Below, in pieces: positions 11,730-48,176 of a DNA stretch of 60,567 nucleotides (the first letter of the stretch is position 1; each line of letters opens with the position of its first letter). The position numbers and the translations under genes were made by a program. The notes below the pieces were generated by a model. The model saw only the letters and a list, made by a program, of their open reading frames with translations. It ran no database searches and had not been told where the DNA came from. This DNA is from Minisyncoccota bacterium (GTDB lineage: Bacteria; Patescibacteriota; Minisyncoccia; Phycocordibacterales; CAIZLB01), in contig DALYDD010000004.1 in NCBI GenBank assembly GCA_031973395.1, positions 447 through 61,013 on the forward strand, given 5' to 3'.

Positions 11730-11759
11730 ATTTTAAACAGAGTTTGCTATACTATACCC

Positions 11760-18775: not shown

Positions 18776-18858
18776 TTTAGAGGTATACGAAAAGAAAGGT
18801 TTAAATAAGGGGCTCGGTCACGAATCACTAAGTCTTTTTCTTCGCTACACTTGAAAAA

Positions 18859-28800: not shown

Positions 28801-31800
28801 ACATTTACAACCACCGCCCCAGATACGACGGCGCCGAGTATCGTTGGAAATGTTGCATCCTCTACGACTTCAAGCTCCGGGACTATTACTTGGACAACAG
28901 ACGAAGCTGCTTCTTCGAGAGTTGTTTATGGTACAAGCACTGGTACATACACCGCTTCTTCGACATCTGCTACAGCTACAACTAGTCACTCCCATGTTCT
29001 CTCAGGGTTGCTTGGTTCCACACCTTATTATTTCCGAGTGGTGTCCACTGATGCGTCTTTGAATACATCAACTTCATCTGAAATGATATTTACAACTAGC
29101 GGAGGGGCAACGACGGTCTCATTGCGAGAAGGTCAGAACAGTTATTCTGGAATGGTGGATACGTATCTCGATAGTGCAGCAGTAACAACGAATCAAGGTA
29201 CGAATGTGATTGTCGCGATCGATGGGTCACCTGCATTGACTGGTCTCATGAAATGGGATCTATCTTCGATACCGTCAAGCGCCACTGTCTCAGATGTAAA
29301 GCTTGTTTATAACGTCACTAATATAACTGCAAATACATACAATATATATAGATCGCTACGCGCATGGACAGAAGGCGGTGCAACATGGAATACATACGAT
29401 GGTACTAATTCGTGGGGTACTGTTGGGGGGTTAAATGCGACATCAGACTATAATTCAACGTCTCTTGGAACTGTGGGTGTAAATAGTTTGGGTCTTGCTA
29501 CTACGACACTCAATGCTTCTGGAATAACTTTGGTGCAAGGCTGGGTAGATGGATCTATTACAAATAATGGATTTACTCTACATCAATCGGCATCAACAGA
29601 CAGTGTTCAATTTGATTCGAGCGAGGGTTTAACAACCGCCTTGCGTCCGGCACTTGTCGTTACTTATAGCACAGGCGGACCCGACACCACACCTCCGGTA
29701 ATATCAAGTGTTGCTTCTTCGACAACTGAAACCACTTCAACGATTACCTGGAACACTGATGAATCGGCAACGACGGCTATGGTGTACGGAACGGTTTCTG
29801 GAACACTTGGCACAGCGAGCTCTTCTGCATCAACTGGTACGACACATAGTCTGGTTTTGACGGGATTGGCTCCTGCAACTACGTATTATTTCCGAGTGGT
29901 TTCAACAGATGGTTCAGCGAATACTGCGACATCTTCCGAATTTTCATTTAGAACCGTAACACCTGAGGCTACAAGTACGGCATGGTGGAACGCATCTTGG
30001 GGTAAGCGTATACCTGTCACATTTGATAATGTCGGACATGCAGAAAATTTAACCAACTTCCCAGTACGTGTGGTTTTGAATAGTTCGCGCATTACATACG
30101 GAGATTTCAAGGCGAATGGAGACGATATTAGATTTGTCGATGCGGATGGTGCAACAGTTTTGCAATATGAAATAGAAAACTGGGATACTGCGAGTACTTC
30201 AAATATTTGGGTAAAGGTTCCTCAAGTCAATTCGGCTTCTTCGAATGACTTTATATATATGTATTATAACAATCCTGCTGCAAGTGCCGCAGCAACGACA
30301 ACTGGGGTTTGGGATAGTAATTACAAGGGCGTATGGCACTTGGGTCAGAATCCAGCAGGTACTGCTCCGCAGATGCTCGATAGTACAATAAATGCAAAAC
30401 ATGCGACGACGGCCGGTTCAATGACTGCGGATCAGCGCGTACTAGGTCAATCTGGATTTGCGGTGAATCTCACAGGTAATGATTACCTTTCAATGGGGGC
30501 GCTGGGTGCTATGGCAGGCGGACGAACTGTAAGTATGTGGATCAATGGTAATTCTTGGACTCGAACTGATACAGGTGATAATGCCCTGTTCGCATTCAAT
30601 ACCTCTGCTGGTGGAAATACGGATATTGTTCGTATCAGTACGGCAGGTTCTATTGGTCACTATAACGGAACAACGGTTGTTCCCGCTTCCAGTTCTGTGG
30701 CCATCGCAACAGGCGGATGGCACCATATTTCGATTGTCTCTTCGAGTACGGCTAATGCCAGCTTGATTTATCAAGATGGTGTTTTGGTGGGAACAGCAGC
30801 TACTTGGGCACCGGCAGTTGGAGCAACGGATGTATTCTTTGCGGGTCAAGAAATTGATACTACGACCGCGAGCGACTTCTTTAATGGAAAGCAAGATGAA
30901 ATTCGTGTCGAGTCAGCTGCGAGAACGGCTAAATGGATACAGGCACAATTTGAAACACAGGAAGATTCATTTATCACATATGGTTCCGCAGAAAGTGGTG
31001 CGGATACGACACCACCTGTCATTTCAAGCATTGCTTCTTCTACCGCAACCTCTACGGCTTCGATAACATGGTCAACAAATGAAGTGGCAACATCTACTGT
31101 TCAATATGGATTAACCACAAGTTATGGATCACAAGCGACTTCAAGTGGTACAACAACGCATTCGGTATCCTTGTCCTCACTTACACCGAACACTCTTTAT
31201 CATTACCGAGTTACTGCCATAGACGCATCGACCAATCTCTCGACATCAACAGATATAACATTTACCACGACCGCCATAACAGATACTACACCGCCGGTTA
31301 TTTCAGATATTGCATCTTCGACGAGTACATCAACCGCCTCTATAACATGGTCAACTGACGAGGCTGCAACATCTACTGTTCAATATGGATTAACCACAAG
31401 TTATGGATCACAAGCGACTTCAAGTGGGACGAGTACACATTCAGTCTCATTGTCTAGTTTGACTCCAAATACTCTGTATCACTATCGAGTCACAGCGATT
31501 GATTCAAGTACGAATACTTCGACTTCTTCAGATCGAACATTCACGACTACGGCTTTGCCTGACACTACGGCACCTACCATAAGTGCCGTCGCTTCGACGA
31601 CAGGTGTTACGACAGCGACTATTACATATACAACCAATGAAGCTGCAAGTTCGACGATAGACTATGGCTTAACTACTGGCTATGGATCACAAGCAACTTC
31701 AAGTGGAACCACAAGCCACTCGGTCTCATTATCTGGTCTGACATCTTCGACTCTTTATCATTACCGAATCACAGCAACAGATTCGAGCGGTAATGCCTCA

Positions 31801-33657
31801 TCGACAACCGATCTCACGTTTACGACTACTGCTGCACCAGATGTCACTCCGCCTGCGGTTGAGCTCACTGCACCTGCGGCAAGTGCATTGGTGACAGGGT
31901 CTTCGGTTACATTAACCGCATCCTCTTCTGATGGTGTCGGTGTAGCGGGAGTTAAATTCTACGTCGACAATACATTGATCCAGTCAGAAGACACCTCTTT
32001 CCCTTATACGTTGAGTTGGGATAGTACATCAGTTGCGAGTGGTACAAGGATATTAATTGCTGTTGCTCGAGATTCTGCCGGCAACCAAGCAACTTCTTCA
32101 CCGGTATCTGTGACTGTAGACAATGCTGTGCCGGTGATCTCGAATATCGCAAGTTCTTCTGCGCAGACGACCGCATCAATCAGTTTCACTACAAATGAAA
32201 ACACTACGGTCCGTGTAAACTACGGTCTGACCAGTGGCTATGGATCAAGTACGGCATTTACATCTACTGCAAGTACGACACATACAGTGGCGCTAACTGG
32301 TTTGAATCAAAATACTGCATATCATTTCCAAATTGAAGTAAGAGACGCTGTTCCGTTTACTGCTACGTCTACAGATCGTATTTTGACCACTACACCCGAT
32401 GTGACAGCTCCTGTAATTAGTACAATAGGCGCTGTCGCTGCGAATACATCTGGAACTATTTCTTGGGTCACAGACGAAGCCGCTTCTTCCCAGGTCACAT
32501 ATGGATTACTTAGTAGATACGATCAAATCACTGCAAAAACTGATACTTCACCACGTGTTACTGATCATAGTGTCTCGATCACAGGATTATCTTCTTGTGC
32601 CGTTTATTCGTACAAAGTTATTTCTCAAGATACTGCTGGCAATACTTCGACTTCTTCTGCTACGGAATTTGTTACAACTGGTTGTACTGGCGGTGCAGCG
32701 GCAGGTGCGAATGAAGAACAGCAAATTGCAACTTCTACCGGAGGTAATGTAGAACTTATCCAGGGGGGTGAGGGAATAGGGCTTAATATCCCGGCTGGAT
32801 TTTCTTCAACTTCGAGCTCAACAGTATTCCAGATCTTGCAGGTAAATGCAGCGGCCGTAGCAAATGGTGGTGGTGCCCCAGCTCCGGGTATGGCTCCTGT
32901 TGATACGTATATGTTTAGACTTAATGCGTTGACTGCGATTAATACGGTAATCACATCATTTGATGCAGAGATCACCATCACTATTACATATTCAGATGCA
33001 GATGTTGCTGGATTCGATGAGAGTACGCTCAAGATGTATCGCTACGATGGATCATCGTGGCATGAACTTGATGACTGTGTATTGAATACCACTTTGAATA
33101 CGATTACCTGTACTACGACTCGATTCTCTGATTTTGGAATGTTTGGAATTCCTATACCGGGAAATAGTGGATCTGCTCCAGTAACCGTGGCTCCAGGCAG
33201 TGTGGCCTTCACAACAGGTACAAGCGGAGGATTATTGGCCATCAACCAAAATGCATTAGGCTGTCAAAATGGTGCGATATTCAATGTCTATAGTGGCCAA
33301 CGATGCCCAAGTTCTATCGGTTCAGTGCCAACGGGTACAAATTCTGGAAATAATACTTCGGGTAATTTCCCAAATATTCCAGCCAATTTCTCTTTCACAA
33401 AATTATTAACACCTGGAATGACTCATCCTGATATCTTGCACCTCCAGCGAGTGTTGAATGCAGATAAGACTACAAGGGTAGCTATAAAGGGTATAGGTTC
33501 GCAAGGTAAAGAAATCGATTATTTTGGTCCAGGGACAAAACAGGCGGTAATCAAATTCCAGATTAAATATGGTGTCATCAAGAATGCAAAAGATCCATAT
33601 GCAGGTACGACAGGTCCTGGTACGCGGGCTGCGCTCAATAGACTATTGAGGAAGTAG
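25834..33657 (+). CDS. giant surface protein: TM anchor, metallophosphoesterase-like domain, DNRLRE-type modules, many Fn3 repeats, DUF2341/LamG-like region, Ig-like domain, C-terminal peptidoglycan-binding domain
   Basis: 2607 aa. GNHE/GHTH phosphoesterase motifs. Repeated (T/S)WTT(N/D)E..S...YG...Y Fn3 units. WWNASWGKRIPVTFDN...DIRFVD resembles DUF2341. The C-terminal LQRVLN...GPGTKQAVIKFQ resembles PG_binding_1. The start codon is uncertain (TTG at 25834, with ATGs shortly downstream). Confidence 0.8.
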   Translation: MSKKRYNMYYMIPIPGMPAPEHGHGFSAQNFPKKQFSAKKIAGVILFGLVAILGILQIHKQVSAIATTIAVMSDGGGSTAQQMIDDLDQILLQKLSGWNIDAVGWNGDIGYDTLGSGTSSVAFAVGAYDSSTAGVAGIPLFLAEGNHEAENAADVLRLRQMYTRYQGYATSSVHGPLGWNFSQMPNAYSSTTNYAYDIGDIRVIVVNQYAATTSDAVNTTGRVHEQVFEWIKSEIKKTTKQHIAVMAHEPAYPVPSQVSGNHIGDSLDADPANRDKFVNLLASYGQINHFVGHTHIADLYEMKNTTAGVNGDARTTTTSLDGGIWELDSGGFGDKAPGGGGQHTYPGIGYLHTNSANWGDYTLMLVYGEGSPQWAAPTSETVGISNLTRQILVNTWQGAGTGTSSNGLFDMSYYVDYTDAVAANPDWSANNSGKWWEPAFSTTTAGWTSGELGVGYRTDAAAPQWINKPIDAFGGLATTTPQVYSIMQRIVFPATTTSSYGNMTLHLDDDDGVMVWLNGTLILNSTNASVTAPTTGSGAEYFDKVQTNTSNGWVGTSISPTFSTVDISAFKGSLVNGQNTLVVWNINGGSSTSTDLGVAVRLSISGAVDAIAPNISSVASTTPTVNTATVSWTTNESSDSQVEYGLTSTYTASTTLDTNMVTSHSVNISGLATSTTYHFRVISKDASANRTNSTDYTFTTPASTPSAATTTLREGQNGYTGMTDTYLNASSTYTNNGTATTMLIDGAAPFANGLMKWDVSSIPSNATIQSVSISYNVTNNSGANTYTIYKSTQNWVENETNWASSSVSVPWGLPGSLDNSDDYVDTSLGTLGTASIAPATSTLNAAGIAVVQGWVSGSTPNQGFFISRTSTADIDGLQFDSSEAATVGNRPGLTIVYNLPSGPDITAPVVSAVASSTTASAATITWTTNEAATSTIDFGTTSGYGTASSSATATTSHRIVISGLASSTLYHYRISVWDTSGNLATTSDLTFTTTAPDTTAPSIVGNVASSTTSSSGTITWTTDEAASSRVVYGTSTGTYTASSTSATATTSHSHVLSGLLGSTPYYFRVVSTDASLNTSTSSEMIFTTSGGATTVSLREGQNSYSGMVDTYLDSAAVTTNQGTNVIVAIDGSPALTGLMKWDLSSIPSSATVSDVKLVYNVTNITANTYNIYRSLRAWTEGGATWNTYDGTNSWGTVGGLNATSDYNSTSLGTVGVNSLGLATTTLNASGITLVQGWVDGSITNNGFTLHQSASTDSVQFDSSEGLTTALRPALVVTYSTGGPDTTPPVISSVASSTTETTSTITWNTDESATTAMVYGTVSGTLGTASSSASTGTTHSLVLTGLAPATTYYFRVVSTDGSANTATSSEFSFRTVTPEATSTAWWNASWGKRIPVTFDNVGHAENLTNFPVRVVLNSSRITYGDFKANGDDIRFVDADGATVLQYEIENWDTASTSNIWVKVPQVNSASSNDFIYMYYNNPAASAAATTTGVWDSNYKGVWHLGQNPAGTAPQMLDSTINAKHATTAGSMTADQRVLGQSGFAVNLTGNDYLSMGALGAMAGGRTVSMWINGNSWTRTDTGDNALFAFNTSAGGNTDIVRISTAGSIGHYNGTTVVPASSSVAIATGGWHHISIVSSSTANASLIYQDGVLVGTAATWAPAVGATDVFFAGQEIDTTTASDFFNGKQDEIRVESAARTAKWIQAQFETQEDSFITYGSAESGADTTPPVISSIASSTATSTASITWSTNEVATSTVQYGLTTSYGSQATSSGTTTHSVSLSSLTPNTLYHYRVTAIDASTNLSTSTDITFTTTAITDTTPPVISDIASSTSTSTASITWSTDEAATSTVQYGLTTSYGSQATSSGTSTHSVSLSSLTPNTLYHYRVTAIDSSTNTSTSSDRTFTTTALPDTTAPTISAVASTTGVTTATITYTTNEAASSTIDYGLTTGYGSQATSSGTTSHSVSLSGLTSSTLYHYRITATDSSGNASSTTDLTFTTTAAPDVTPPAVELTAPAASALVTGSSVTLTASSSDGVGVAGVKFYVDNTLIQSEDTSFPYTLSWDSTSVASGTRILIAVARDSAGNQATSSPVSVTVDNAVPVISNIASSSAQTTASISFTTNENTTVRVNYGLTSGYGSSTAFTSTASTTHTVALTGLNQNTAYHFQIEVRDAVPFTATSTDRILTTTPDVTAPVISTIGAVAANTSGTISWVTDEAASSQVTYGLLSRYDQITAKTDTSPRVTDHSVSITGLSSCAVYSYKVISQDTAGNTSTSSATEFVTTGCTGGAAAGANEEQQIATSTGGNVELIQGGEGIGLNIPAGFSSTSSSTVFQILQVNAAAVANGGGAPAPGMAPVDTYMFRLNALTAINTVITSFDAEITITITYSDADVAGFDESTLKMYRYDGSSWHELDDCVLNTTLNTITCTTTRFSDFGMFGIPIPGNSGSAPVTVAPGSVAFTTGTSGGLLAINQNALGCQNGAIFNVYSGQRCPSSIGSVPTGTNSGNNTSGNFPNIPANFSFTKLLTPGMTHPDILHLQRVLNADKTTRVAIKGIGSQGKEIDYFGPGTKQAVIKFQIKYGVIKNAKDPYAGTTGPGTRAALNRLLRK
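31012..31850 (+). repeat. three tandem ~280-nt Fn3-coding units inside the giant gene
   Basis: Units start near 31012, 31291 and 31570. Units 1 and 2 share a 62-nt perfectly identical block (31087-31148 = 31366-31427). Confidence 0.8.
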
Positions 33658-36232: not shown

Positions 36233-36916
36233 CTAACGAGTTATCTCAATAAAATCATCGGCACCTTCCTCTAGTTTTAAGTATTTTTTCTTGACGATCG
36301 GCGGGTTGCTTCCATAATCTGTGATGGTATTTATATAGTATTGTTCACCGCTCTCTGTAGGTTGATCAGTTGGAGTGTAAAAATTTTGATATTCACGCAC
36401 AGAGAGTTCCCACCCACCGTCTGTAAATGTATACAATTCTTTTAAGAAGATATCACCTAGTCCACGACCTTTTGAACCATTGGTAAGTATGCGTTTTTCG
36501 GTATCTACGGTCACATAACCCAACACTGGATATTCGGGGCCGTATGCTATGTCTGAACTGATTTCATACTGTTCAAAATCTCGTGTATCTGGATTTTGAA
36601 CATAAAACTCAGTACCTACATTATAAGCTCCAATCAATATCTGCATTTGAATATCCTCTAACCCGTCAAAATTGATATCAACTTTTGATAGTTCTGTCAC
36701 TGGCGCGATATAATTAGTTTCAATCTTTGTCACATATCCATCTGTGTATGTAACTGTAAGGCTAATTGGTTTTTCTTCAGTATCGGAATCTGCATCTTCG
36801 GTTACTGTAAATGTATGTGACACATCGTTTTTCTTAGTATTGTTCTTGGTATAAGAGATATAGAACAAGCCGGTCAGTATAAGAACAACGAGAACGGCTA
36901 AGAGTATTTTTTTCAT
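36233..36916 (-). CDS. membrane-anchored hypothetical protein
   Basis: 227 aa with an N-terminal TM segment. No motif recognised. Confidence 0.5.
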   Translation of the reverse strand: MKKILLAVLVVLILTGLFYISYTKNNTKKNDVSHTFTVTEDADSDTEEKPISLTVTYTDGYVTKIETNYIAPVTELSKVDINFDGLEDIQMQILIGAYNVGTEFYVQNPDTRDFEQYEISSDIAYGPEYPVLGYVTVDTEKRILTNGSKGRGLGDIFLKELYTFTDGGWELSVREYQNFYTPTDQPTESGEQYYINTITDYGSNPPIVKKKYLKLEEGADDFIEITR

Positions 36917-37111
36917 ATAGTCTATATTGTACAGCTTGTAGAATTGGATTCAATGGCACTAAGCCTTTATATATCTGCAGCAATCCTCAGAGTCTTCAAG
37001 ACATGCTCATACTCTGCCGGCGAAATTGAAACTCTATCAATAGTGGTAGTAGTGAAATGTGCCTGTAGATGATAGGTGCCTCCAAAGGAAGCTTCTAGTG
37101 CTAGCTCTAAA

Positions 37112-37278
37112 TGGTGACCCTGCGGAGAGTTGGTCCTTACAGGACCAGTACAGGTTTCCCATTTTCTCAAATTTGATTCTAATTTCGGCTTCGCCTATGG
37201 GAATAAAATTATCGAAAATATGGGAGAACCTTTTCGACTCTCCGCCGCGAGCCAAGCAGTTGGCTCGCTTAGGGTCAC
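37112..37278 (-). ncRNA. tRNA-trailer structured RNA module, copy C (Glu-type, ends in ACCA)
   Basis: The minus strand reads GTGACCC-TA-[GCGAGCCAA-CTGC-TTGGCTCGC]-CGGAGAGT-CGAAAA-[GGTTCTCCC...GGGAAACC]-TGTACT-[GGTCC-TGTAA-GGACC]-A-ACTCTCCG-CA-GGGTCAC-CA. Confidence 0.65.
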
Positions 37279-37328
37279 ACTCGCAAAACAAAAACCACCT
37301 TTCGGTGGGTTTTGCTCGTGTGACCCCA
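37272..37328 (-). terminator. terminator hairpin originally abutting tRNA-Glu (now separated from it by the island)
   Basis: GGGTCACACGAGCAAAAC-CCACC-GAAA-GGTGG-TTTTTGTTTTGCGAGTGTGACCC. Confidence 0.6.
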
Positions 37329-37364
37329 TTGTACCTTAATTGGAACACTTTAGAGAACGCAATC

Positions 37365-37661
37365 TTATCTTGGAAGTCGTTTAGACTTTCGCGTTCTTTT
37401 GATATAAATCAATCCTAAAATGGCAAAAATGATTGCTAATACGGATAAGAAAGTGTGATTATTGAAAAAAGCATATACTCCATTGATCACGCAATACCTG
37501 CTTGTGCAAGGTTGCGAAAGCTCAATAAAAGAGTTGTGTCCGGAAATCTGATCTCCGATCCATATCGCAGCAATTGCAAACCCATACAGTGCAACTATCA
37601 TTGAAAACAACCATGCGATTCCACCAATGAAATAGCTGATGATTTTTATGTTTTTTGTCAT
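37365..37661 (-). CDS. small polytopic membrane protein (island)
   Basis: 98 aa, 3 predicted TM segments, basic tail. Confidence 0.45.
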   Translation of the reverse strand: MTKNIKIISYFIGGIAWLFSMIVALYGFAIAAIWIGDQISGHNSFIELSQPCTSRYCVINGVYAFFNNHTFLSVLAIIFAILGLIYIKRTRKSKRLPR

Positions 37662-37758
37662 TGTGAACCCATTGCGTGGCTTTCAGAACTTACTAAACAG
37701 AGGGATTATATCGTCTCTGCCATTCAGAACCTTGGCTCGCTTATGGTTTCGTAAATCT

Positions 37759-38343
37759 CTATTCTGTTAATGTAACTTCTATAAAATCATTTTTTTGTTC
37801 GGGGTGTTTTATATAGTACCTAAAAGACTTATAGGGCGACTTACCTTTACCTTTGAAATAGGTATAAAATTGCGGTCGGTATGATGTGTCATCTCCTCTT
37901 TGGTCGATTGACTCAATCCACTCAAAAGGTATCACACCTGTCATTAAGATATTTGATGATGTGTCGTTACTATCTTGAGGTTTCTTACTGAAAGAAGTGT
38001 CGCCTATACGATATGCGGATATGACCTCACAAAAAAACTCGACGCCAGCAAAATGATAACCTTTAATTTCTGCCCCTAGATAGGTATATCCGTGTCTATT
38101 TTCTGTATTGCTTGTAGGATAGTGGCTATCGTATTTCTTTATGTTGATTAGTTCTATCTTGCTACTTATTCCATTTCGGACCTTATATACAAGCTCATCA
38201 ACAATCTTTTGAATTGCCTCACGCCTAGTAAAACGTTCCCTGAATGACTGTTGTTTGGAAAGACTATAAACGTGATAGGCAACGAAAGTACCGATGACAA
38301 TTCCTACGACACTGATAATTGTATTTATAATTTCAATACTCAT
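37759..38343 (-). CDS. membrane-anchored hypothetical protein (island, last gene of the idi operon)
   Basis: 194 aa with an N-terminal TM segment (IINTIISVVGIVIGTFVAYHVY) and a soluble domain with no recognised motif. Confidence 0.5.
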   Translation of the reverse strand: MSIEIINTIISVVGIVIGTFVAYHVYSLSKQQSFRERFTRREAIQKIVDELVYKVRNGISSKIELINIKKYDSHYPTSNTENRHGYTYLGAEIKGYHFAGVEFFCEVISAYRIGDTSFSKKPQDSNDTSSNILMTGVIPFEWIESIDQRGDDTSYRPQFYTYFKGKGKSPYKSFRYYIKHPEQKNDFIEVTLTE

Positions 38344-38351
38344 ATAGGTAG

Positions 38352-38374
38352 GTTCACAACGTTCACTTGTTCAT
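38352..38374. promoter_or_regulatory. triple direct repeat GTTCAC-N3-GTTCAC-N2-GTTCAT immediately upstream of the 194-aa gene
   Basis: The same triplet array recurs at 40342-40365 and partially at 40222-40237. Inverted units occur at 40370-40392. Confidence 0.5.
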
Positions 38375-38375
38375 C

Positions 38376-39668
38376 CTAGCTCTTGGCCCAAACTGAAGAT
38401 AACCTATCTTTTTCATTATCAAGCCAAGTTATCATTTCTTTTGTACGCTTATTTACCAAAGATTGCTGTGGACGAATTTTCGTATCAAATTTAATTGAAA
38501 GCAATTTAACATATCTATTACCTTTTACTAAACTCACAACTAAATCTTCAAGAAAGCTTTTACTTTCAGATGGTTCAAATTCTTTCAGTGCTTCAAGTGC
38601 AATATAAGCGTAGGCTGTGGCGTCTACTAGAGCAAGCTTAATGTAGTCACCCTTTACCATCATCTCTCTCATCTTCTCTTGCCATTCCTGTTCTGATTTA
38701 TGCTTATAAAAATCTTCAAGAAGTGAAATGTGCTCATTGTTCTTGTTATTAAGCAGGATTTGAATTGGCCACGTAAGTCTCTCGTTTTTTATATCAATAA
38801 ATACATCTTCAGATACCTTCTCACGTGTAGGCGAATTATTTCCAGTCAAGTCTAGTGCGAAGTCTTGAATATCGTTTACCACCATCATCAACATACCATA
38901 GCAGAAAGCATACCTCGTTAATTGCTTCAATGTGTTGTTTTCAACCTTTTCAGAAAAAAGAGATGTGAGAATAGTAGGAAATCGCTCAATCATATAAGCA
39001 TTTAAACCGTAAGTGCGTTTCCAAACAAATTCCGCAATACTTGAAGCGTCTATTTTCACACCCTCTTTTAGTTCATTTTCCACTAGTTTTAGCTCTGGCT
39101 TTAAAATTTGAGCATCTAACTTTCTATCTTCTGAAATAGTAAGTGGTAGGAGATTATTCTTATTGAAATTATTATACACATTAAAGAGTGTATCGAATGT
39201 TTGACCTAGATATATACCTCTGTATATCTCTTCAGTAAATAATATAAGTTTTTCCTTTTGTTCATTGTTTAGCAATGTTGTTTCATTGATAAAATCAGAA
39301 TGACAGTCTCTTAAAAAAGTAGCCGTTTTAAAAGCCGTTATTTTTTTATCTCCAATATATCCAGACTTTCCATCTGCCCCGACATTATAACAATATGCTT
39401 GTATCATATTTAATTCCAAAGATGCACATAGAAAGTAAAATGCTTCACCAGTCTCTATGTTTAAAATATGTGCAATAAGATATAAGAAATGAGCTCGTGA
39501 ACTTTGCTTTGATGCAATTTTATCAAGAGCAAATTCTTTCAACATTAGGGCGACATCTTTATCTTCACATAACAGAGATTTATTTGTTAGAAACGAATTA
39601 AGAAACGGAAAATAACTTGCGTGTATTTCCTTCATCTGCTGAAACCTTTTTTCTGTTCTATCTAACAT
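38376..39668 (-). CDS. polyprenyl synthase/terpene synthase-fold protein with degenerate Asp-rich motifs (island)
   Basis: 430 aa. ASLELNMIQAYCYNVGAD occupies the place of the first DDxxD. YLGQTFD. FCYGMLMMVVNDIQDFALDLTG aligns with GxxFQxxDDxLDxTG. DIKNERLTWPI aligns with D(l)xxGKxTlP. Confidence 0.55.
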   Translation of the reverse strand: MLDRTEKRFQQMKEIHASYFPFLNSFLTNKSLLCEDKDVALMLKEFALDKIASKQSSRAHFLYLIAHILNIETGEAFYFLCASLELNMIQAYCYNVGADGKSGYIGDKKITAFKTATFLRDCHSDFINETTLLNNEQKEKLILFTEEIYRGIYLGQTFDTLFNVYNNFNKNNLLPLTISEDRKLDAQILKPELKLVENELKEGVKIDASSIAEFVWKRTYGLNAYMIERFPTILTSLFSEKVENNTLKQLTRYAFCYGMLMMVVNDIQDFALDLTGNNSPTREKVSEDVFIDIKNERLTWPIQILLNNKNNEHISLLEDFYKHKSEQEWQEKMREMMVKGDYIKLALVDATAYAYIALEALKEFEPSESKSFLEDLVVSLVKGNRYVKLLSIKFDTKIRPQQSLVNKRTKEMITWLDNEKDRLSSVWAKS

Positions 39669-40176
39669 TGTTGAGAAAGGTTTGGTTATTCATAATAATT
39701 TTCAACCATTCTGTATAGAGGGTAGGATTATTCTCAATATCTTTCTTAAGCTCTGCAATTTTAATCCATTTATATTCTGATACCTCTTCAAAATTTGGAT
39801 GTGGCTCTTCATCACTGTTACCAATAAAGACGTGGTCAAACTCATTTTCAACTAGACCATTTTCTAATTCAACTTTATACATAAAAGTAAACAATTCTTC
39901 CAAATCACAATCAATCCCCATTTCTTCTTGAAGTCTTCTGTGAATTGCCACTCTCAAATTTTCGTTTTCTTTAGGATGACTACAGCACGTATTACTCCAT
40001 AAACCACCAGAATGATATTTAGCGGGATTTCTTCTTTGTAGGAGAAGTTCAGTATTTTTATTAAATATAAAAATAGAAAATGCCTCGTGGAGAACACCAG
40101 ATTTATGTGCTTCCAGTTTTTCAACTGTGCCTATCCTGTTTCCTTCTTTATCTACTAGATTTATTAAGTCACCCAT
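39658..40176 (-). CDS. idi: isopentenyl-diphosphate delta-isomerase, type 1 (Nudix fold) (island)
   Basis: 172 aa, collinear with E. coli Idi. EAH..GVLHEAFS supplies the His ligands. WSNTCCSHP supplies the catalytic Cys and a His. ENEFDHVF is the E-x-E motif. EVSEYKWI is also present. Confidence 0.85.
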   Translation of the reverse strand: MGDLINLVDKEGNRIGTVEKLEAHKSGVLHEAFSIFIFNKNTELLLQRRNPAKYHSGGLWSNTCCSHPKENENLRVAIHRRLQEEMGIDCDLEELFTFMYKVELENGLVENEFDHVFIGNSDEEPHPNFEEVSEYKWIKIAELKKDIENNPTLYTEWLKIIMNNQTFLNNVR

Positions 40177-40221
40177 AATTATTTGACCATAATATCAAAA
40201 ATTTCTCAAAACATCTAGACA

Positions 40222-40393
40222 TTCACGACGTTCACACTTGAGAAATAATTTGCACAAAAAAGTAGCTCTTTTTCGACTAATTTCGCCTAATTTATATCAA
40301 GACAACCCGAACCCTTTATAAAACTCTGTTTTTATTGTAAAGTTCACAATGTTCACCACGTTCATTTTTGTGAACGTGTGTACGATGTGAATG
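40222..40393. promoter_or_regulatory. divergent control region of the island with GTTCAC iteron-like repeats
   Basis: ATTCACGACGTTCAC lies at 40222-40236. GTTCAC occurs at 40342 and 40351, and GTTCAT at 40360, on a 9-nt period. The palindrome CACGTTCA-N5-TGAACGTG lies at 40357-40377. GTGAAT overlaps the ATG at 40391. Confidence 0.5.
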
Positions 40394-41791
40394 TATATGA
40401 AATTGAGTGGTAATGACAAAAAAATACTAGAGACACTTTTCAATATGCGAGGCGGTTATGTCTTGGATTTTTCCGATAGACGGATGACGGAGTTTTTCAA
40501 GGAAGAATTTGGGATAAATATCTATGATGAGAAATACGACTTTGATTTTCCAAGTAAATCCAAGGCTAACCGTTTGCGTGGTATCTGGCTCAAAGAGGAT
40601 GTGTTGGTTGTGGGACAGATAATCCTATCCCTCGTGGACTACTATGAGACAAGTCTTCTTGTTGAGAATAAAGAGATACCACAGAATACCAAAGACCTTA
40701 TTCAAAAAGGACGTGAAATTGGTGCAAGATTGCTTTTCAATGAAATGGCGAGAGGCAATGAACCGATAGTCAAAGCTATTACTGACAAGACAGCCCTCAT
40801 CAGAAACTTCAATTCTATTGATTACAAAGCTCTCAAAACCAATGAGAAAATATACTTATTGAAGGTCCTGTATTCATATTACGAAGCCATCATACGAACA
40901 TACTACGGCTCTGGTTTATTTTTCTTAACCTCTGGCATTGATGACCTGAATGACTACTTCAAAGTACTACGAAAAAGGATAATAGAAATTATCGCTTCAG
41001 ATGACACGTTTTTGGATATAAAGAACAGCCACGCCTACACGCAAATTATCGAACCTATCACAAGCCTGTATGTGAGTGCCGAGTTTTTGGACGCTATTTG
41101 GGATGATGCAATACTCCCTTCGATTATCAATATGCGTGAAGATATTGCTGATAAGGACCTATTTGAAAATCAGTCTGAAGTACACCAAGAGACAGGTATA
41201 GGATTACCACTTTTCCTTGAAGCGATTAAAAGAGAAATGGAAAAGATGAAAAAATATCTGGACCAGAGGACAAAAAGCTTTTATGCTACTGACTTACCGA
41301 AACATAAAGAGGTTTTTGAAAAAGCTTCTGGCGAGCCGAAAAAAGATGATGTCATAAAGCACGAACACACCCATCTTTTCAAAAATAGTATCCAAGAGAA
41401 AGAGATAGTCCTAAACCACAAGTTCGAGGATGGTAAACCAAGCACTAACTACATCACTAAAAAGGGCGATGATTTCTACTATAAAGGTCTTCATATTCTC
41501 GCCAACAAGAAAAATAATGATTACTACAAGGTATTTTCTGCTCTGTACGCAAAACTTCCCGATGGTGGTGAAATATCATACAAAGACCTTATTTCTGAAA
41601 TAAAAAGCCGTATGTCTGACCAAAAGAATAAGACAGATGATGAGATGCAGAAGTTTATTCAAAGAAACCTTACCGATAGAGGTAACGGCTTTATGAGATA
41701 CGCAAACATACCAGAGACAGAAGACAACGGAAAGCCACTTATCTCTGTCATTCGTGGCACTGGAGTAGTGTTCAATAACAAAACAGGCTAG
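40391..41791 (+). CDS. hypothetical protein (island)
   Basis: 466 aa, helical and charged. No motif recognised. Confidence 0.5.
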   Translation: MYMKLSGNDKKILETLFNMRGGYVLDFSDRRMTEFFKEEFGINIYDEKYDFDFPSKSKANRLRGIWLKEDVLVVGQIILSLVDYYETSLLVENKEIPQNTKDLIQKGREIGARLLFNEMARGNEPIVKAITDKTALIRNFNSIDYKALKTNEKIYLLKVLYSYYEAIIRTYYGSGLFFLTSGIDDLNDYFKVLRKRIIEIIASDDTFLDIKNSHAYTQIIEPITSLYVSAEFLDAIWDDAILPSIINMREDIADKDLFENQSEVHQETGIGLPLFLEAIKREMEKMKKYLDQRTKSFYATDLPKHKEVFEKASGEPKKDDVIKHEHTHLFKNSIQEKEIVLNHKFEDGKPSTNYITKKGDDFYYKGLHILANKKNNDYYKVFSALYAKLPDGGEISYKDLISEIKSRMSDQKNKTDDEMQKFIQRNLTDRGNGFMRYANIPETEDNGKPLISVIRGTGVVFNNKTG

Positions 41792-41965
41792 TTCCTGACT
41801 TTTCCTGAAAAATAATTATAGACTGTCCCGAAACACCCTTGAAATACGGGGTGTTTTTCTATTTACAGGAAATCAAATGAAATACGCAGAACATTCTCAA
41901 AAGGCAAAAATTGGTATGTAGCTTTTCTTGGCGGAAGTACACATATCAATAAAACACCAATATAA

Positions 41966-42253
41966 ATGTTTATGAAAAAACACATAGCAGAAGTTCCTCT
42001 CGACGATTATAAGAACTATTACTACTCAAACGACATTGATGTCGCATCGGTACTCGTGTGCAAGGGATACACGCTCGAAGATGTGGTCCCCATCTCAAAC
42101 AATAAGGCGACTTTTGTCTTCAAAAATCATCCTGCCATCACCGATGCAGTTGATGGATTTTGGAGTAACCGAATTGAGGTCCATCCTCTTGAATTTGCCA
42201 ACGCTCGCAAGAACCTGAAGTCTCGCATTTTTGGTATGCGAAAAGATTACTAA
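41966..42253 (+). CDS. small hypothetical protein (island)
   Basis: 95 aa. The pattern LVCKGYTLEDV...ATFVF...AI..FW......V.PLEF..A.K.LKSRI resembles small phage/plasmid-associated proteins. The assignment is tentative. Confidence 0.45.
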   Translation: MFMKKHIAEVPLDDYKNYYYSNDIDVASVLVCKGYTLEDVVPISNNKATFVFKNHPAITDAVDGFWSNRIEVHPLEFANARKNLKSRIFGMRKDY

Positions 42254-42265
42254 CCACTAATAAAA

Positions 42266-43642
42266 ATGTATATGCAAAACAATGAAGAAAAAATAATAAA
42301 GCCAATACTAAAAACTGCCATCTTCACCACAGATACTCTCTACGAAATGGTTTTTGACCGCAATGCAAACAAGACATCTTTCACCAAAATAAACCGTGAT
42401 GGAACGATTGAATATCTCCTCGAAGAAGTTGATATTGATGGTAGAAAATACAAACCACTTCCACCAACTTACAACCTCGTAGACAAAGACGTGATACTTT
42501 TCCCATCCGTTGCTACCGAGTATCAAAGTGAGGAAGAAATACTCAAAGAGATACAGACCTTCATACACAAATACCTAGACATCTCTGAAGTGTTCGAACA
42601 GATAGCCACTTATTATGTCCTCTTTACTTGGATGTTTGATAAGTTCAACGAGGTCCCATATCTCCGTGCCATAGGCGACTTTGGTAGCGGTAAATCTCGC
42701 TTTATTCAAGCTATAGGCATCCTATGCTACAAACCTGTGTTTACGGGCGGTGCGACTACTCCTAGCCCCATATTTCGCATTGTAAACGAGGTACACGGCA
42801 CACTTATCATTGATGAAGCCGACTTCAAGTTCTCTGATATGACCTCTGAAATCGTAAAGATTTTGAACACTGGATACCAGAGAGGTATGCCAGTCTTGAG
42901 GTCCGAAGGCAAAGGTACTTTTGAGGTAAAAGCGTATGACGTTTTCTGTCCGAAGATAGTCGCTACTCGTGAGACATTTTCTGATAAGGCACTTGAAAGC
43001 CGATTTCTCGTCGAAGAAATGGGTGCAGGAAAACTGCGTGCAGATATTCCAAGAACACTCGATGAGAGCTTTTACAAAGAAGCTGAACTCATCAGAAATA
43101 AGCTTTTGATGTGGCGATTGAAAAACTACTTTGAGCCTATCGAGCGAAGACACGACCTCATCGAAGGTATACATCCTCGCCTCAATCAGATAGTGATGCC
43201 ATTGCTTTCAATTATCAAAGACGAAGCGATACGTGAGCACCTCAAAACATTCATCGTGAAATACAATACAGACCTTGTAGCTGACCGAGGACTTTCTTGG
43301 GAAAGCGACATCGTGTTTGCGGTACTAAAACTTGAATACGAATTGAAGGTCCACGAAATTACCGTCAAACAGATAACTGATGAAGTAAACAAGGAAATCG
43401 ACATCACTGACGACACACTACAAGCTCGAAAAGTCGGATGGTATCTACGTTCAAAGTTACAGCTCAAACCATACAAAACACGAAAAGGTTTTGTGCTCTC
43501 CTTCAAGGAAAATAAAAAGCGACTTGATATGTGGAAAGAACGCTTCGGCATAACCGATGCGGATATTCGAGGTGAACAAGTGAATGTCGTGAACGATACC
43601 AAAACAGTAGATGCACCAACGGCTGAAGAGCTTGGATTTTAA
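42266..43642 (+). CDS. P-loop NTPase, putative replication initiator/helicase-like protein (island)
   Basis: Walker A DFGSGKSRF and Walker B LIIDEADF, with arginine-containing downstream motifs. Its size and context suggest an element replication protein. Confidence 0.55.
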   Translation: MYMQNNEEKIIKPILKTAIFTTDTLYEMVFDRNANKTSFTKINRDGTIEYLLEEVDIDGRKYKPLPPTYNLVDKDVILFPSVATEYQSEEEILKEIQTFIHKYLDISEVFEQIATYYVLFTWMFDKFNEVPYLRAIGDFGSGKSRFIQAIGILCYKPVFTGGATTPSPIFRIVNEVHGTLIIDEADFKFSDMTSEIVKILNTGYQRGMPVLRSEGKGTFEVKAYDVFCPKIVATRETFSDKALESRFLVEEMGAGKLRADIPRTLDESFYKEAELIRNKLLMWRLKNYFEPIERRHDLIEGIHPRLNQIVMPLLSIIKDEAIREHLKTFIVKYNTDLVADRGLSWESDIVFAVLKLEYELKVHEITVKQITDEVNKEIDITDDTLQARKVGWYLRSKLQLKPYKTRKGFVLSFKENKKRLDMWKERFGITDADIRGEQVNVVNDTKTVDAPTAEELGF

Positions 43643-43662
43643 TCATTAACTAAGTCAAAACA

Positions 43663-43920
43663 ATGGAAGAAAAAATCATATTCGAGACTGGCTATACAGA
43701 AGACGAGATACAAAGCTTCTCTGAAGCAAATTATGGGCGTGAGCTGACAGAAATTGAGATACACAGAATGAGAGACTATTTGTGGGATGACGATGATGTG
43801 TCTTGGGCACGAATAGAACTGATGGCAAAAGCAATCGAGGCGGTAATGGATAACGAAGGCAACCAATGGAAATCGGTAGACGAAGATTATCAATCTAATT
43901 CAAAACAAAATGAGCGATAA
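43663..43920 (+). CDS. small acidic hypothetical protein (island)
   Basis: 85 aa, very acidic. Overlaps the next gene by 11 nt. Confidence 0.4.
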   Translation: MEEKIIFETGYTEDEIQSFSEANYGRELTEIEIHRMRDYLWDDDDVSWARIELMAKAIEAVMDNEGNQWKSVDEDYQSNSKQNER

Positions 43921-44416
43921 AAGTGGTCCAAAAACAGACGAAGGAAAAGCTGTATCAAAATACAATGCCATAAAGCACGGCTTGCTTACCAAAGAAGTCC
44001 TTGTTGATGCTGACGAAGTGAATGACCTTAATCAACTCAAGGAAGCGTTATACGAAGCCCTAGACCCTGTAGGTCCAATGGAAAACCTACTCGTGGACCG
44101 CATTATCTCAAACGCTTGGAGACTGCGAAGAGCTATCCAAGTCGAGACCAAAACTATGGAGTGGTATCAGAACGATTTTGACTTTTTCCCTGTAGGACAA
44201 AGCGAAGAACAGCAAGCACGAAAAAGCGTAAAGAATATGTTGAGCAATGACAGTGTAGACACCATCCTTCGCTACGAAACTACCATCGAACGAAGCCTCT
44301 TTCGAGCACTCCACGAACTAGAACGTTTACAGGCAAAAAGGAACGGAAAAGATGTCCAAGTTCCTGCCGTGGTCGATGTAAATCTCGATAGTTCGTTTCG
44401 CAAAAATGAACTGTAA
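43910..44416 (+). CDS. hypothetical protein (island)
   Basis: 168 aa, helical. No motif recognised. Confidence 0.45.
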   Translation: MSDKSGPKTDEGKAVSKYNAIKHGLLTKEVLVDADEVNDLNQLKEALYEALDPVGPMENLLVDRIISNAWRLRRAIQVETKTMEWYQNDFDFFPVGQSEEQQARKSVKNMLSNDSVDTILRYETTIERSLFRALHELERLQAKRNGKDVQVPAVVDVNLDSSFRKNEL

Positions 44417-44459
44417 AAACGGTTAAACCCTATTGATTTCGGACACTTAACAAACCTTT

Positions 44460-45077
44460 ATGAGCAAATCAGAAGCTGACTGGTGCAAGAAAATAGAAAT
44501 ATGGTGGTTACTTCGAGACATAAAAGAAAAAGGTGGCTACAAATACACTACCATATCTTGGGGTGAAGACGGCTCTCGTGGAAGTATATCGGTCCAAGTA
44601 TCTGTATGCGATGAAGAAAAATACGCTCGCTTTATCTACACCCAAATAGACAACTCTACAGGTGAAAAGAAGGACTATGACTATAAGGTCCCGATAATCG
44701 AAACTCCCTGTCATTTTGGCGGTACTCGATACTGGTTCAAGTGCAATCTCTACAAGAATAATCAGTATTGCGGACGACGTGTCGGTGTCCTCTATAAAGA
44801 TGGAAACTGGTTCGGATGCCGACATTGCTACGAACTTACCTACGCCTCAAGAAAAGTGAATAAGCGATACAAACACTATCCGATGTTTCGGGTCCTTGAG
44901 ATTGATGCAGAAATCGAAAAGCTTGAACAAAAAGCGAAGCGTTATACCTACAAAGGCGTACCCACAAAAAGACGACAAAAACTAGTGAAACTCTATCAAG
45001 AAGCATCTCGCAATTATCGTGCATTTTCTGACACAGAAAAGGGTCTTAACGTGCACAAAAAAGGTCGAAGATTTTAG
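44460..45077 (+). CDS. Cys-rich (zinc-ribbon-like) hypothetical protein (island)
   Basis: 205 aa. CHFGG...C...C and C..C spacing. Basic C-terminus. Confidence 0.45.
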   Translation: MSKSEADWCKKIEIWWLLRDIKEKGGYKYTTISWGEDGSRGSISVQVSVCDEEKYARFIYTQIDNSTGEKKDYDYKVPIIETPCHFGGTRYWFKCNLYKNNQYCGRRVGVLYKDGNWFGCRHCYELTYASRKVNKRYKHYPMFRVLEIDAEIEKLEQKAKRYTYKGVPTKRRQKLVKLYQEASRNYRAFSDTEKGLNVHKKGRRF

Positions 45078-45091
45078 CAAAAAATGATATT

Positions 45092-47036: not shown

Positions 47037-47047
47037 ACGATAGGGCC
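46976..47047 (-). tRNA. tRNA-Glu(UUC): tRNA-Glu (anticodon UUC)
   Basis: GGCCCTATCGTCTATCGGTTAGGACATCGCCTTTTCAAGGCGAGAAGCGGAGTTCGACTCTCCGTAGGGTCA forms a canonical 72-nt cloverleaf. Confidence 0.9.
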
Positions 47048-48171: not shown

Positions 48172-48176
48172 CAAAG

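Follow-up and report, generated by a model that had tools for sequence, protein, structure and literature searches.

We analysed a 60,567-nt stretch of contig DALYDD010000004.1 (positions 447 to 61,013) from a Minisyncoccota bacterium, hereafter the window. Its minus strand carries a structured module, copy C, with the following parts in 5' to 3' order:

37272-37327, minus strand: long hairpin, whose CCACC-GAAA-GGTGG inner stem and T-run are scored as an intrinsic terminator by a terminator scan
37271-37279, minus strand: acceptor', TGTGACCCT, antisense of the tRNA-Glu 3' acceptor strand plus CA, read from the sequence
37247-37268, minus strand: H1 hairpin, GCGAGCCAA-CUGC-UUGGCUCGC, seen in the fold
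37233-37244, minus strand: T', CGGAGAGTCGAA, a 12-mer perfectly antisense to the T-loop and T-stem of tRNA-Glu (T54 to C65; exact reverse-complement match, no mismatch)
37153-37231, minus strand: P3 long hairpin of the subtype GGUUCUCC...GGGAAACC, present in folds, with an extra insert relative to copy A
37147-37152, minus strand: junction UGUACU (family consensus GUACUG, the last G of which, at 37146, opens P4)
37132-37146, minus strand: P4 hairpin, GGUCC-UGUAA-GGACC, predicted in the fold; the stem is variable and the YGUAR loop conserved
37112-37131, minus strand: X_post, AACTCTCCGCAGGGTCACCA, a distal sense copy of tRNA-Glu from T-loop to discriminator, then CCA

The long hairpin opens with GGGGTCACA (37327-37319), which equals the tRNA-end core repeat, and closes with TGTGACCC (37279-37272). 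The acceptor' of copy C doubles as the 3' strand of this hairpin.

Re-reading shows that all sequence statements of the original prediction on copy C (i.e. pairings, hairpin start, and coordinates) are correct, including the encoded CCA after GGGTCA. The predicted mimicry of the tRNA-Glu 3' end by the 3' strand is equally well founded, as X_post matches that end at 16 of 17 positions. When the 17-mer ACTCTCCGTAGGGTCAC is searched with up to 3 mismatches allowed, the only sites are the tRNA-Glu 3' end and 37114-37130 (1 mismatch), against a chance expectation of 0.02. The minimum-free-energy structure of 37110-37282 (minus strand) reproduces the multi-branch fold that had been proposed, with a long coaxial closing helix in which GUGACCCU/AGGGUCAC stacks on GCGGAGAGU/ACUCUCCGC. 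This helix is uninterrupted (8 + 9 bp) and ends in a 3' CCA, and the fold has a free energy of -78.0 kcal/mol compared with -43.2 +/- 4.2 in 200 dinucleotide shuffles (z = -8.2), none of which is as stable.

Copy C is separated from tRNA-Glu by 9.65 kb, which include the following features:

46975-47047, minus strand: tRNA-Glu(UUC), originally trailed by copy C (ARAGORN and Rfam)
45309-47036, plus strand: large serine recombinase gene (575 aa) with Resolvase, Recombinase, and zinc ribbon domains (Pfam), matching the phrog_95 integrase (E = 1e-59)
37671-46974, strand not assigned: tRNA-Glu-specific integrative island with low G+C cargo (Pfam and PHROG annotation)
37662-37712, minus strand: island right arm and core (attR), GATATAATCCCTCTGTTTAGTAAGTTCTGAAAGCCACGCAATGGGTTCACA, 96% identical to L120 2907-2956
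37330-37661, minus strand: remnant of a second integrated element, ~340 nt, ending in a diverged island right arm, ..GGTACAATGGGGTCACA (right-arm alignment)

The G+C content of the island drops to 0.31-0.38, and its genes follow a conserved order (466 aa, DUF5659, 458 aa, 85, 168, and 205 aa, then the recombinase) that is also found in L121 and L123, at other genomic contexts. The final ~20 codons of the recombinase gene run antisense through tRNA-Glu. Recombinase homologs share this 62-nt overlap, and all four homologous islands adjoin tRNA-Glu. The island ends carry the short core repeats GGGTCACA and GGGTTCACA, and the right arm is conserved, with the attR of L121 bearing the same one. The region 37671-46974 has an integrase at one end, terminal core repeats, and the same target in relatives, i.e. 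the makeup of a large serine recombinase island. It represents a tRNA-Glu-specific serine-integrase island family whose integrases are up to 92% identical between genomes with PurD at most 75% identical. The recombinase belongs to the island and is separate from the module, the island right arm in L121 carrying no module. In the remnant, the 98-aa ORF at 37365-37661 has no Pfam or PHROG match.

The original prediction held that the ancestral locus had tRNA, hairpin, and module in direct succession, and this layout is present in the island-free loci L071 and L114, where tRNA-Glu is directly followed by hairpin and module. In L114, the hairpin directly 3' of tRNA-Glu is a homolog of that of copy C, and L071 is syntenic with the window (ftsZ 70% and trxB 65% amino acid identity; tRNA-Val and tRNA-Glu alongside). 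The island-free junction AGGGTCACACGAGCAAAACC had no match in the metagenome scan. The claim that an island integrated exactly at the tRNA/hairpin junction stands in that a serine-recombinase island lies at the GGGTCACA tRNA end; what changes is that the 9.65 kb consist of two tandem elements. Accordingly worded, a related element, now reduced to 340 nt, came first, and the tRNA-Glu-specific island then integrated at the GGGTCACA end of tRNA-Glu, parting the tRNA from its hairpin and copy C.

The two sister copies that had been reported at tRNA-Arg and tRNA-Phe are present, and a covariance model of the module core gives exactly three matches in the window: 11620-11722 (plus strand), 18864-18950 (minus strand), and 37120-37244 (minus strand). 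The two further copies are:

11552-11732, plus strand: copy A, directly 3' of tRNA-Arg(CCU), with terminator hairpin, acceptor', H1, T', P3, P4, and X_post; model match 74.7 bits
18800-19092, minus strand: copy B, 3' of tRNA-Phe, a long variant; model match 53.9 bits at 18864-18950

Both are seen in sequence and in predicted folds. Copy B has an additional domain between T' and P3 and an end that reads ..CGTGAC/CGAGCCCC. The H1 stem covaries among copies A, B, and C.

The family of non-coding modules that includes copy C is widespread in Patescibacteria (Paceibacteria-type CPR), where its units lie just 3' of tRNA and tmRNA genes and number at least several hundred across many assemblies. In species-representative genomes, a tRNA or tmRNA on the same strand lies no more than 400 nt upstream of 83 of the 121 sites with an exact P4 19-mer, and most others lie at contig edges. 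Metagenomes offer an independent sample, in which an H1 22-mer, the variant GCAAGCCAACTGCTTGGCTTGC, occurs in >120 loci; of its 129 sites, 94 follow a tRNA or tmRNA of the same strand at a distance of at most 200 nt (median 44 nt). Hosts of the module include 36 tRNA anticodon types as well as tmRNA, and wherever the flanking sequence is long enough, the module is preceded by an intact tRNA. Some units stand away from any tRNA.

Units measure 100-250 nt, contain no ORF, and encode no recombinase, transposase, or reverse transcriptase. On the tRNA strand, the order is X (the tRNA 3' segment from about G57 to N73, plus CA), usually an intrinsic terminator hairpin, acceptor', H1, T', the core, and X_post, a second sense copy of X. 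A terminator-like hairpin is found between tRNA and module in 44 of 81 loci (54%). The family is apparently undescribed so far. At gathering threshold, Rfam 15 finds only tRNAs in the window and 8 related loci, and searching the three window copies at E up to 10 returns chance-level matches only. A phage database search found no similar DNA, and none of the 2.9 million viral contigs of IMG/VR contains the exact P4 19-mer; the module is therefore no obvious phage attP region. We also found no description of it in the literature on tRNA genes, structured RNAs, and repeats of Patescibacteria/CPR, on T-loop integrases, or on tRNA-like minihelices.

The core consists of P3, GUACUG, and P4 with a GUA triloop, and 13 of its 21 consensus pairs show compensatory double changes. 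At the base of P3 these occur in 5-26 sequences per pair (n = 47 aligned), and the P4 stem covaries among model matches that lack the exact 19-mer. The GUACUG junction is invariant in the core alignment, with rare variants elsewhere (GAACAG, GTACAG, and ATACTG). Of the two strands, that of the tRNA gives the more stable fold in 76 of 81 modules (mean -6.9 kcal/mol, P = 2e-14). P3 subtypes are 92-96% identical across species and tRNA types, and pairs at least 90% identical are 26 times commoner within than between genomes; dating insertions by P3 identity was rejected, because the subtypes are conserved across species.

Known motifs compared by eye were also set aside. The P3 apex AUGA[stem]GAAA lacks C3 and G5 of a hammerhead core and has the wrong junction order; strings resembling hairpin-ribozyme loops merely pair with each other; and the internal loop is 2x3 rather than the 5x2 of a K-turn. 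A T-loop motif in P4 was discarded, as U..A covaries with C..G, which indicates a closed GUA triloop, and so was a pseudoknot between GUAC and the GUA loop, since junction variants do not covary with the loop.

The antisense arms follow the resident tRNA. At the 5 tRNA-specific bases of T', the mean match to this tRNA is 4.35/5, compared with 2.68 when loci are permuted (maximum of 2000 permutations, 3.19). The resident tRNA is a better pairing partner for T' than X_post is in 46 loci, and a poorer one in a single locus. Acceptor' is perfect (7/7) in 26 of 74 family members. X_post begins at a fixed T-loop position adjoining P4; it matches the neighbouring tRNA at 14 or more of 17 positions in 29 of 83 loci and is decayed in the others, and its acceptor part is perfect in 15 of 72 members. 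That T' stays perfect beside a decaying X_post implies that selection, or else templated correction, still acts on the antisense arm, which is not expected of a dead insertion. Covariation in P1b was not counted toward structure, since the tRNA is the template of both its strands. X_post is redundant: virtual splicing of upstream sequence to it never revealed a hidden split tRNA, and joining gave no tRNA where none already existed, so that a split or intron-containing tRNA was rejected.

The acceptor-like helix ending in NCCA, to which the original prediction drew attention, holds for copy C and does not extend to the family as a general feature. Antisense and distal sense acceptor segments are both kept (at least 6/7) in only 7 of 72 members, with no positive association between the arms of this helix (odds ratio 0.47). 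A CCA follows X_post, and is lacking from the tRNA gene, in L019, L060, and L040; the reverse, a CCA in the tRNA and none after X_post, is equally frequent (L066, L100, L033, and L079). Gains and losses of CCA are thus symmetrical between X_post and the tRNA end, and we rejected CCA as a signature of retro-copying from mature tRNA. Encoded CCA shows no association with modules (12/85 vs. 11/85), and all four window tRNAs are followed by CAA, which places CCA one substitution away.

Presence of the module varies at orthologous tRNAs. At tRNA-Arg(CCU)-purD, the window has a module, L119 has an empty site, and L117 and L118 carry insertions unrelated to the module. Similarly, the tRNA-Glu locus has a module in the window and L071, and none in L120, a closer syntenic relative. 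These empty-site relatives (L119 and L120) are only 73-78% identical, a distance at which module boundaries are not readable. A search for close filled and empty relatives returned a nearest PurD 75% identical to that of the window and no filled/empty pair in near-identical genomes, and no excised form turned up either, which is why we infer both the boundaries and the mobility of the module, now or in the past. About half of the tRNAs in the loci sampled carry a module, these loci having been chosen for carrying one. Tandem units of different subtypes occur at a single tRNA in L116, L104, and L016, up to three units follow each other in L186, some units are nested within the P3 of another, and L019 contains a 3.6-kb islet bounded by P3-P4-X. 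The patchy presence, the tandem and nested units, and the L019 islet are typical of a mobile element, as are the spread of near-identical P3 subtypes over species and tRNA types and the excess of such P3 pairs within genomes.

We propose that the module is a miniature, protein-less element inserted in the tRNA T-loop, where it provides a new 3' end and pushes out the former one; we consider this reading quite possible, if somewhat short of probable. A unit would have landed in the T-loop region of a tRNA gene, bringing a replacement 3' end and a terminator, and the tRNA would for this reason have stayed functional. The original 3' end would have been pushed downstream, become redundant, and decayed. 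Within the element, X would pair with acceptor' and T' to form a rod, in keeping with the copy A read-through fold described below, and the rod would bring both ends of the element together where it (X paired with T') meets P3 and P4. On this reading, the X found at the tRNA would be element-borne, and a folded single-stranded intermediate, either RNA or ssDNA, would take part. In copy C, X_post is the sole local partner left for the antisense arms, which would be why this copy looks like a clean acceptor/T-arm mimic.

A host-selected RNA would account just as well for the covariation, the strand bias, and the high conservation of P3 and H1 between species. The module would then be a cis-acting RNA in the tRNA 3' trailer: in read-through transcripts, acceptor' and T' would capture the preceding tRNA by its 3' half, this capture would be modulated by the P3/P4 junction and X_post, and the outcome would control tRNA maturation, quality control, or the stability of read-through products. 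The covariation is of RNA type and comes with a folding bias toward the sense strand, and T' is still complementary to the resident tRNA where X_post has decayed, both in line with this account. The minimum-free-energy fold of the full read-through transcript of tRNA-Arg and copy A also agrees with it, with the tRNA 3' half paired with acceptor' and T', and the 5' half with X_post (z = -9.6). However, an intrinsic terminator lies between tRNA and antisense arm in the 44 of 81 loci mentioned above, and the patchiness at orthologous tRNAs, where only about half of those in sampled loci have a module, also argues against it. Tandem units of mixed subtypes, nested units, and units distant from a tRNA fit regulation of individual tRNAs poorly, and copy C, 9.65 kb from its tRNA, cannot act in cis. 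Overall, we regard a trailer RNA as rather unlikely.

We know of no mechanism that explains how sense and antisense arms both come to match each new tRNA. In a further version, the insertion element would guide itself: in a single-stranded form (RNA or ssDNA), its sense and antisense arms would rebuild the acceptor/T-arm duplex of the target, and either a host or trans-encoded recombinase or the P3/GUACUG/P4 junction itself would join it into the T-loop. Because its arms simply copy the target, a single core could be re-armed for any tRNA or tmRNA, and such an element, if real, would be a naturally programmable, protein-less cargo homing to tRNA genes. We think this version unlikely.

The module could also be a passive by-product that neither functions nor moves by itself. 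Template switching, quasi-palindrome correction, and unequal crossing-over, recurring at highly transcribed tRNA genes, would have copied the tRNA 3' end in both orientations and kept the copies alike around a repeat that spreads locally, much as the tyrT repeats of E. coli. Inverted repeats with short spacers can stay complementary by templated mutation (quasi-palindrome mutagenesis) without selection on the antisense arm, and the antisense arm of the module could be maintained unselected in this way. Tandem arrays are common, and the breakpoints fall in universally conserved T-loop sequence (TCGAA / CGAWTC) that offers microhomology. Yet P3, GUACUG, P4, and H1 are structurally conserved with many compensatory changes, the core sequence is kept across many species, tRNA types, and environments, folding is biased to one strand, and a single architecture serves all 36 anticodon types and tmRNA. 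Such an origin thus appears improbable.

Least probable is the possibility raised in the original prediction, a tRNA-like RNA with a closing helix that ends in NCCA, mimics the coaxial acceptor/T-arm stack, and would be processed or bound by RNase P, RNase Z, EF-Tu-like factors, or the enzyme that adds CCA, as the 8 + 9 bp helix with 3' CCA of copy C, its tRNA-like topology (H1 branches from the 5' strand between acceptor and T helices), and the CCA after X_post in L019, L060, and L040 might suggest, but which is opposed by the rarity of intact acceptor helices, the reverse CCA pattern and the lack of a link between CCA and modules described above, a 5' strand that, unlike in tRNA, also pairs with the discriminator, and the lack of a T-loop or D-arm, P3 and P4 standing in the T-loop's place. 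Consistent with this, tRNA model RF00005 has no match in 36900-37500 at E up to 10, and ARAGORN reports only the four true tRNAs of the window without recognising the module. Recognition by RNase P, RNase Z, or CCA-adding enzyme thus seems an unlikely purpose for the family.

Among the closest known counterparts of the module are integrative genomic islands and prophages that target tRNA and tmRNA genes, with their integrase-less derivatives (cis-mobilisable elements, CIMEs). These also insert in the 3' part of the gene and leave the tRNA intact by a replacement 3' end, have at their flanks a direct repeat of the tRNA 3' segment whose start lies in the T-loop, and accrete in tandem at one tRNA, and short integrase-less units of them are known. 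The module has this direct repeat (X and X_post) beside an intact tRNA, and no site-specific recombinase encoded by the element. It differs from tRNA-targeting islands in being only 100-250 nt long, in its antisense copy of the same tRNA segment, and in a conserved, covarying, strand-biased structured core that adjoins the junction. In addition, one module family occupies 36 anticodon types and tmRNA with no integrase linked to it, whereas an integrase normally has one target. A MITE-like transposon was rejected, as the inverted arms (acceptor'/T' and X_post) differ per locus, copying the local tRNA, and there are no family-wide terminal repeats.

In integron attC sites and the CTXphi attP(+) hairpin (IMEX), as in the module, intrastrand pairing rebuilds a duplex that mimics a double-stranded target, structure rather than sequence is conserved, there is strand bias, and cassette-like tandem arrays form. 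The module has no XerCD/dif or IntI core sequences, however, and its arms are copies of tRNA ends; the likeness is an analogy of mechanism only. Locus-specific, target-complementary segments also flank a conserved scaffold in IS110 bridge RNA, TnpB/IscB omega RNA, and group II intron EBS; likewise, the ~20 nt of the tRNA 3' end that pair with a retroviral primer-binding site are those spanned by the antisense arm. Unlike these, the module is not associated with a recombinase, nuclease, or reverse transcriptase gene, its arm matches the genomic ...CA end rather than the mature ...CCA, and both target strands are present; Rfam gives no match, and thus no sequence or structure similarity, between it and guide-bearing element RNAs.

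Plant-virus TLS, MALAT1 mascRNA, and bacterial YrlA resemble copy C in having an acceptor/T-stem-like coaxial helix, a 3' CCA, and a branching body. In contrast to them, the module lacks a T-loop/D-loop elbow, its 5' strand is a perfect complement including the discriminator, tRNA models miss it, and its mimicry is a literal copy of the neighbouring gene that has decayed in most members. Among tRNA trailers, each of the E. coli tyrT repeats (rtT) likewise contains the tRNA 3' terminal segment downstream of the gene, and the glyW-cysT-leuZ 3' external transcribed spacer is a functional RNA. Both are single-locus enterobacterial features, though, without an antisense arm or a core shared across tRNAs, and the Rfam rtT model has no match to the module.

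If they are mobile, the modules would be the smallest known elements homing to tRNA genes, and their locus-specific arms would amount to a targeting principle undescribed for integrative elements and possibly programmable. If they are host RNAs, they would instead form a clade-wide tRNA-trailer layer in Patescibacteria, a conserved non-coding structure that is unexpected in minimal genomes. Either way, the several hundred or more copies now go unannotated, giving rise to false ORFs and to tRNA-fragment signals which may be taken for the boundaries of islands.

Copy C matters mainly because it leads to a large family of structured modules that is unannotated and linked to tRNA genes. Its region combines hairpins (H1, P3, and P4) with sequences related to the tRNA 3' end, i.e. 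acceptor' (antisense of the 3' acceptor strand), T' (antisense of the T-loop and the 3' strand of the T-stem), and X_post, a distal sense copy of X, the tRNA 3' segment from about G57 to N73 plus CA.

Features of the copy C region and the adjacent island
37327-37112, minus: copy C region, in the order GGGGTCACA, long hairpin, acceptor', H1, T', P3, GUACUG, P4, X_post
Minus: GGGGTCACA, start of the region, ahead of the long hairpin
Minus: long hairpin, inner stem CCACC-GAAA-GGTGG plus T-run; intrinsic terminator by scan score
Minus: acceptor', TGTGACCCT
Minus: H1 hairpin, GCGAGCCAA-CUGC-UUGGCUCGC
Minus: T', CGGAGAGTCGAA
Minus: P3, long hairpin between T' and GUACUG
Minus: P4 hairpin, GGUCC-UGUAA-GGACC, after GUACUG
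Minus: X_post, AACTCTCCGCAGGGTCACCA
37330-37661, minus: putative remnant, 340 nt, with a 98-aa ORF; ends in a diverged right-arm copy, ...GGTACAATGGGGTCACA
37662-37712: conserved right arm of the island, ...GTTCTGAAAGCCACGCAATGGGTTCACA; 96% match to L120, also matches L121
45309-47036, plus: large serine recombinase, 575 aa (Resolvase, Recombinase, zinc ribbon; phrog_95 integrase, E = 1e-59)
46975-47047, minus: tRNA-Glu(UUC)

The branched fold proposed in the original prediction holds, with -78 kcal/mol compared with -43 +/- 4 in shuffled sequences (z = -8.2). The underlying sequence observation is equally sound: the sense copy agrees with the tRNA-Glu 3' end at 16 of 17 positions (chance expectation 0.02), the antisense of its T-loop and T-stem is a perfect 12-mer, and there are two sister copies, one after tRNA-Arg(CCU) (copy A) and one after tRNA-Phe (copy B). 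Searched with a covariance model of the core, the window has exactly three hits, which are copies A, B, and C. Module C is overlapped by two mechanical ORFs (37037-37348, minus, 103 aa; 37059-37418, plus, 119 aa) that lack Pfam matches; they are most likely spurious, and could be annotated by gene callers as hypothetical proteins. Upstream of the studied region lies a 2607-aa ORF (25834-33657, plus).

More than 116 stretches of species-representative genomes, exclusively from Patescibacteria, contain a 19-mer over GUACUG and P4. At 83 of 121 sites a tRNA or tmRNA lies on the same strand no more than 400 nt upstream, and sites without one are mostly at contig edges; 36 tRNA anticodon types and tmRNA are represented. 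The core model yields 151 matches across the 119 related loci searched (L001-L119), and copies with different P4 stems reveal P4 as a covarying stem of 4-5 bp in which a Y-R pair closes a GUA triloop. The H1 22-mer of copy B is found in more than 120 further metagenome loci, where H1 is mostly combined with other core types, and 94 of its 129 occurrences are at most 200 nt 3' of a same-strand tRNA or tmRNA (median 44). None of the module types matches an Rfam 15 family, and literature searches found no description of such modules.

Beside the short P3/P4 core, other core types exist between T' and X_post (copy B, 18800-19056, minus; loci L021, L044, L025, L104, and L186). One is a long type, CGGAG..GAGCCGGGG..GAGTACTTAC..CGTGAC, of which copy B is a composite, while L186 carries a further type; H1 is found combined with all of them. 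A sub-class of P3-GUACUG-P4 units starts with GUGAG-hairpin-CGCAAG instead of a tRNA-derived T' (L001 6214-6284; L034 1878-1948; L080; L084 5051-5108; L082; L104 2708), and is located away from tRNA 3' ends or nested within the P3 of another unit. Modules in L030, L045, L059 (about 1690-1760), L098, and L105 come after a conserved RNA-like sequence ending ..GAAATACATTCGAACTTTGTCCAATACACACCGCA, which has no ARAGORN call and no Rfam match.

The original prediction also placed an island between tRNA-Glu and copy C. This is correct in substance (serine recombinase, att arm, and tRNA-Glu end), but the 9.65 kb separating tRNA-Glu from the hairpin hold more than one element. The ancestral order it proposed, i.e. 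tRNA-Glu, hairpin, and module, is borne out by modules at tRNA-Glu in L071 and L114. The last ~20 residues of the recombinase (DPTESRTPLLALKRRCPNR) are encoded antisense to tRNA-Glu, across the left junction, which implies that the C-terminus must change between integration and excision. The four homologs examined in four other genomes (573-575 aa; L120-L123) all adjoin tRNA-Glu (UUC or CUC) and overlap it by 62 nt, as in the window. Relatives in other Patescibacteria are up to 92% identical, while housekeeping PurD has no homolog above 75%. The position of the right arm and its matches to L120 and L121 delimit the island proper to 37671-46974, where G+C drops to 0.31-0.38. The 340-nt segment between the two right-arm copies appears to be what is left of an earlier, related tandem integration at tRNA-Glu. 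The integrase therefore targets the GGGTCACA end of tRNA-Glu whether or not a module is there: the right junction of L121 has neither hairpin nor module. The conserved island gene set (466 aa, DUF5659 of 95 aa, 458, 85, 168, 205, and 78 aa; window 40391-45077, L121 5090-10020, L123 59-4631) travels with the integrase between genomes and has no Pfam or PHROG match except DUF5659. Far-end cargo varies among islands, and in the window includes NUDIX, polyprenyl-synthase-like, and VTT-like proteins.

The modules themselves show signs of insertion. For example, the orthologous tRNA-Arg(CCU)-purD spacer holds a module in the window and is empty in L119 (tRNA, plain terminator, and purD promoter), and L117 and L118 carry unrelated insertions there. 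That of L117, the closest PurD relative, is ~200 nt long (2656-2860); its first elements are a terminator hairpin and a T'-like GGGAATCGAA, and after these comes an apparent antisense tRNA fragment. The module is present at tRNA-Glu in the window, L071, and L114 and missing there from L120, a closer syntenic relative. Single tRNAs can carry two units of different subtypes (L116, L104, and L016) or three consecutive ones (L186); some units are nested in the P3 of others, and a few have no tRNA nearby. L019 has a 3.6-kb islet with HTH and KilA-N genes that is bounded by P3-P4-X. P3 subtypes are 92-96% identical across species and across tRNA types, pairs with at least 90% identity are 26-fold enriched within genomes relative to comparisons between genomes, and L027 has identical P3 behind two different tRNAs, with differing T', P4, and X_post. 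A terminator-like hairpin follows X in 54% of cases directly after the tRNA and 19% after X_post, compared with 8% at random positions. When X_post is joined to upstream sequence, no tRNA emerges that is not already intact, and X_post is therefore redundant.

The simplest account of the family data, which we favor tentatively and at just short of an even chance, invokes a miniature element that inserts into tRNA and tmRNA genes in their T-loop region. Such an element would bring a replacement 3' end (X) and a terminator, like tRNA-targeting islands, and the displaced original 3' end would then decay. Its own X would pair with acceptor' and T', which would explain why the antisense arm tracks the resident tRNA; this pairing is seen in the minimum-free-energy fold of the full tRNA-Arg plus module transcript. 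The resulting rod would put both element ends at the junction of rod, P3, and P4.

P3, P4, and H1 have many compensatory changes, with double changes in 13 of 21 consensus pairs. In 76 of 81 units, the strand that carries the tRNA has the more stable fold of the two (mean difference -6.9 kcal/mol, p = 2e-14). This bias indicates that selection acts on the structure of one strand, that of tRNA polarity, for which RNA is the simplest candidate; together with the covariation, it suggests that the folded single strand matters at some stage. The five tRNA-specific bases of T' match the resident tRNA at 4.35 of 5, compared with 2.68 when loci are permuted (2000 permutations, maximum 3.19), and the tRNA is a better pairing partner for T' than X_post is in 46 loci, and a worse one in 1. 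The main rival to an insertion element is a trailer RNA that is under host selection and acts in cis, its antisense arm capturing the 3' half of the tRNA; we consider this unlikely though far from negligible. A purely passive repeat fits more poorly and is improbable.

Only 29 of 83 loci have an X_post with at least 14/17 identity, and 15 of 72 have one with a perfect acceptor part. The acceptor-like helix retains both of its arms in 7 of 72 loci, and the two arms are not positively associated. Encoded CCA has no link to the presence of modules: it is in X_post and absent from the tRNA in 4 loci, and the reverse holds in 4 others. It is rare in related loci (23 of 170 tRNAs), and all four window tRNA genes lack it, each having the discriminator base then CAA (11551-11554, 19090-19093, 46972-46975, and 48172-48175). 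The clean closing helix of copy C with its ACCA is therefore a well-preserved case of something that is not kept up across the family. The tRNA mimicry with a CCA function put forward in the original prediction is thus not supported, fits less well than a mobile element or a trailer RNA, and is very improbable. The family is probably either a mobile element or a trailer RNA, and this is directly testable.
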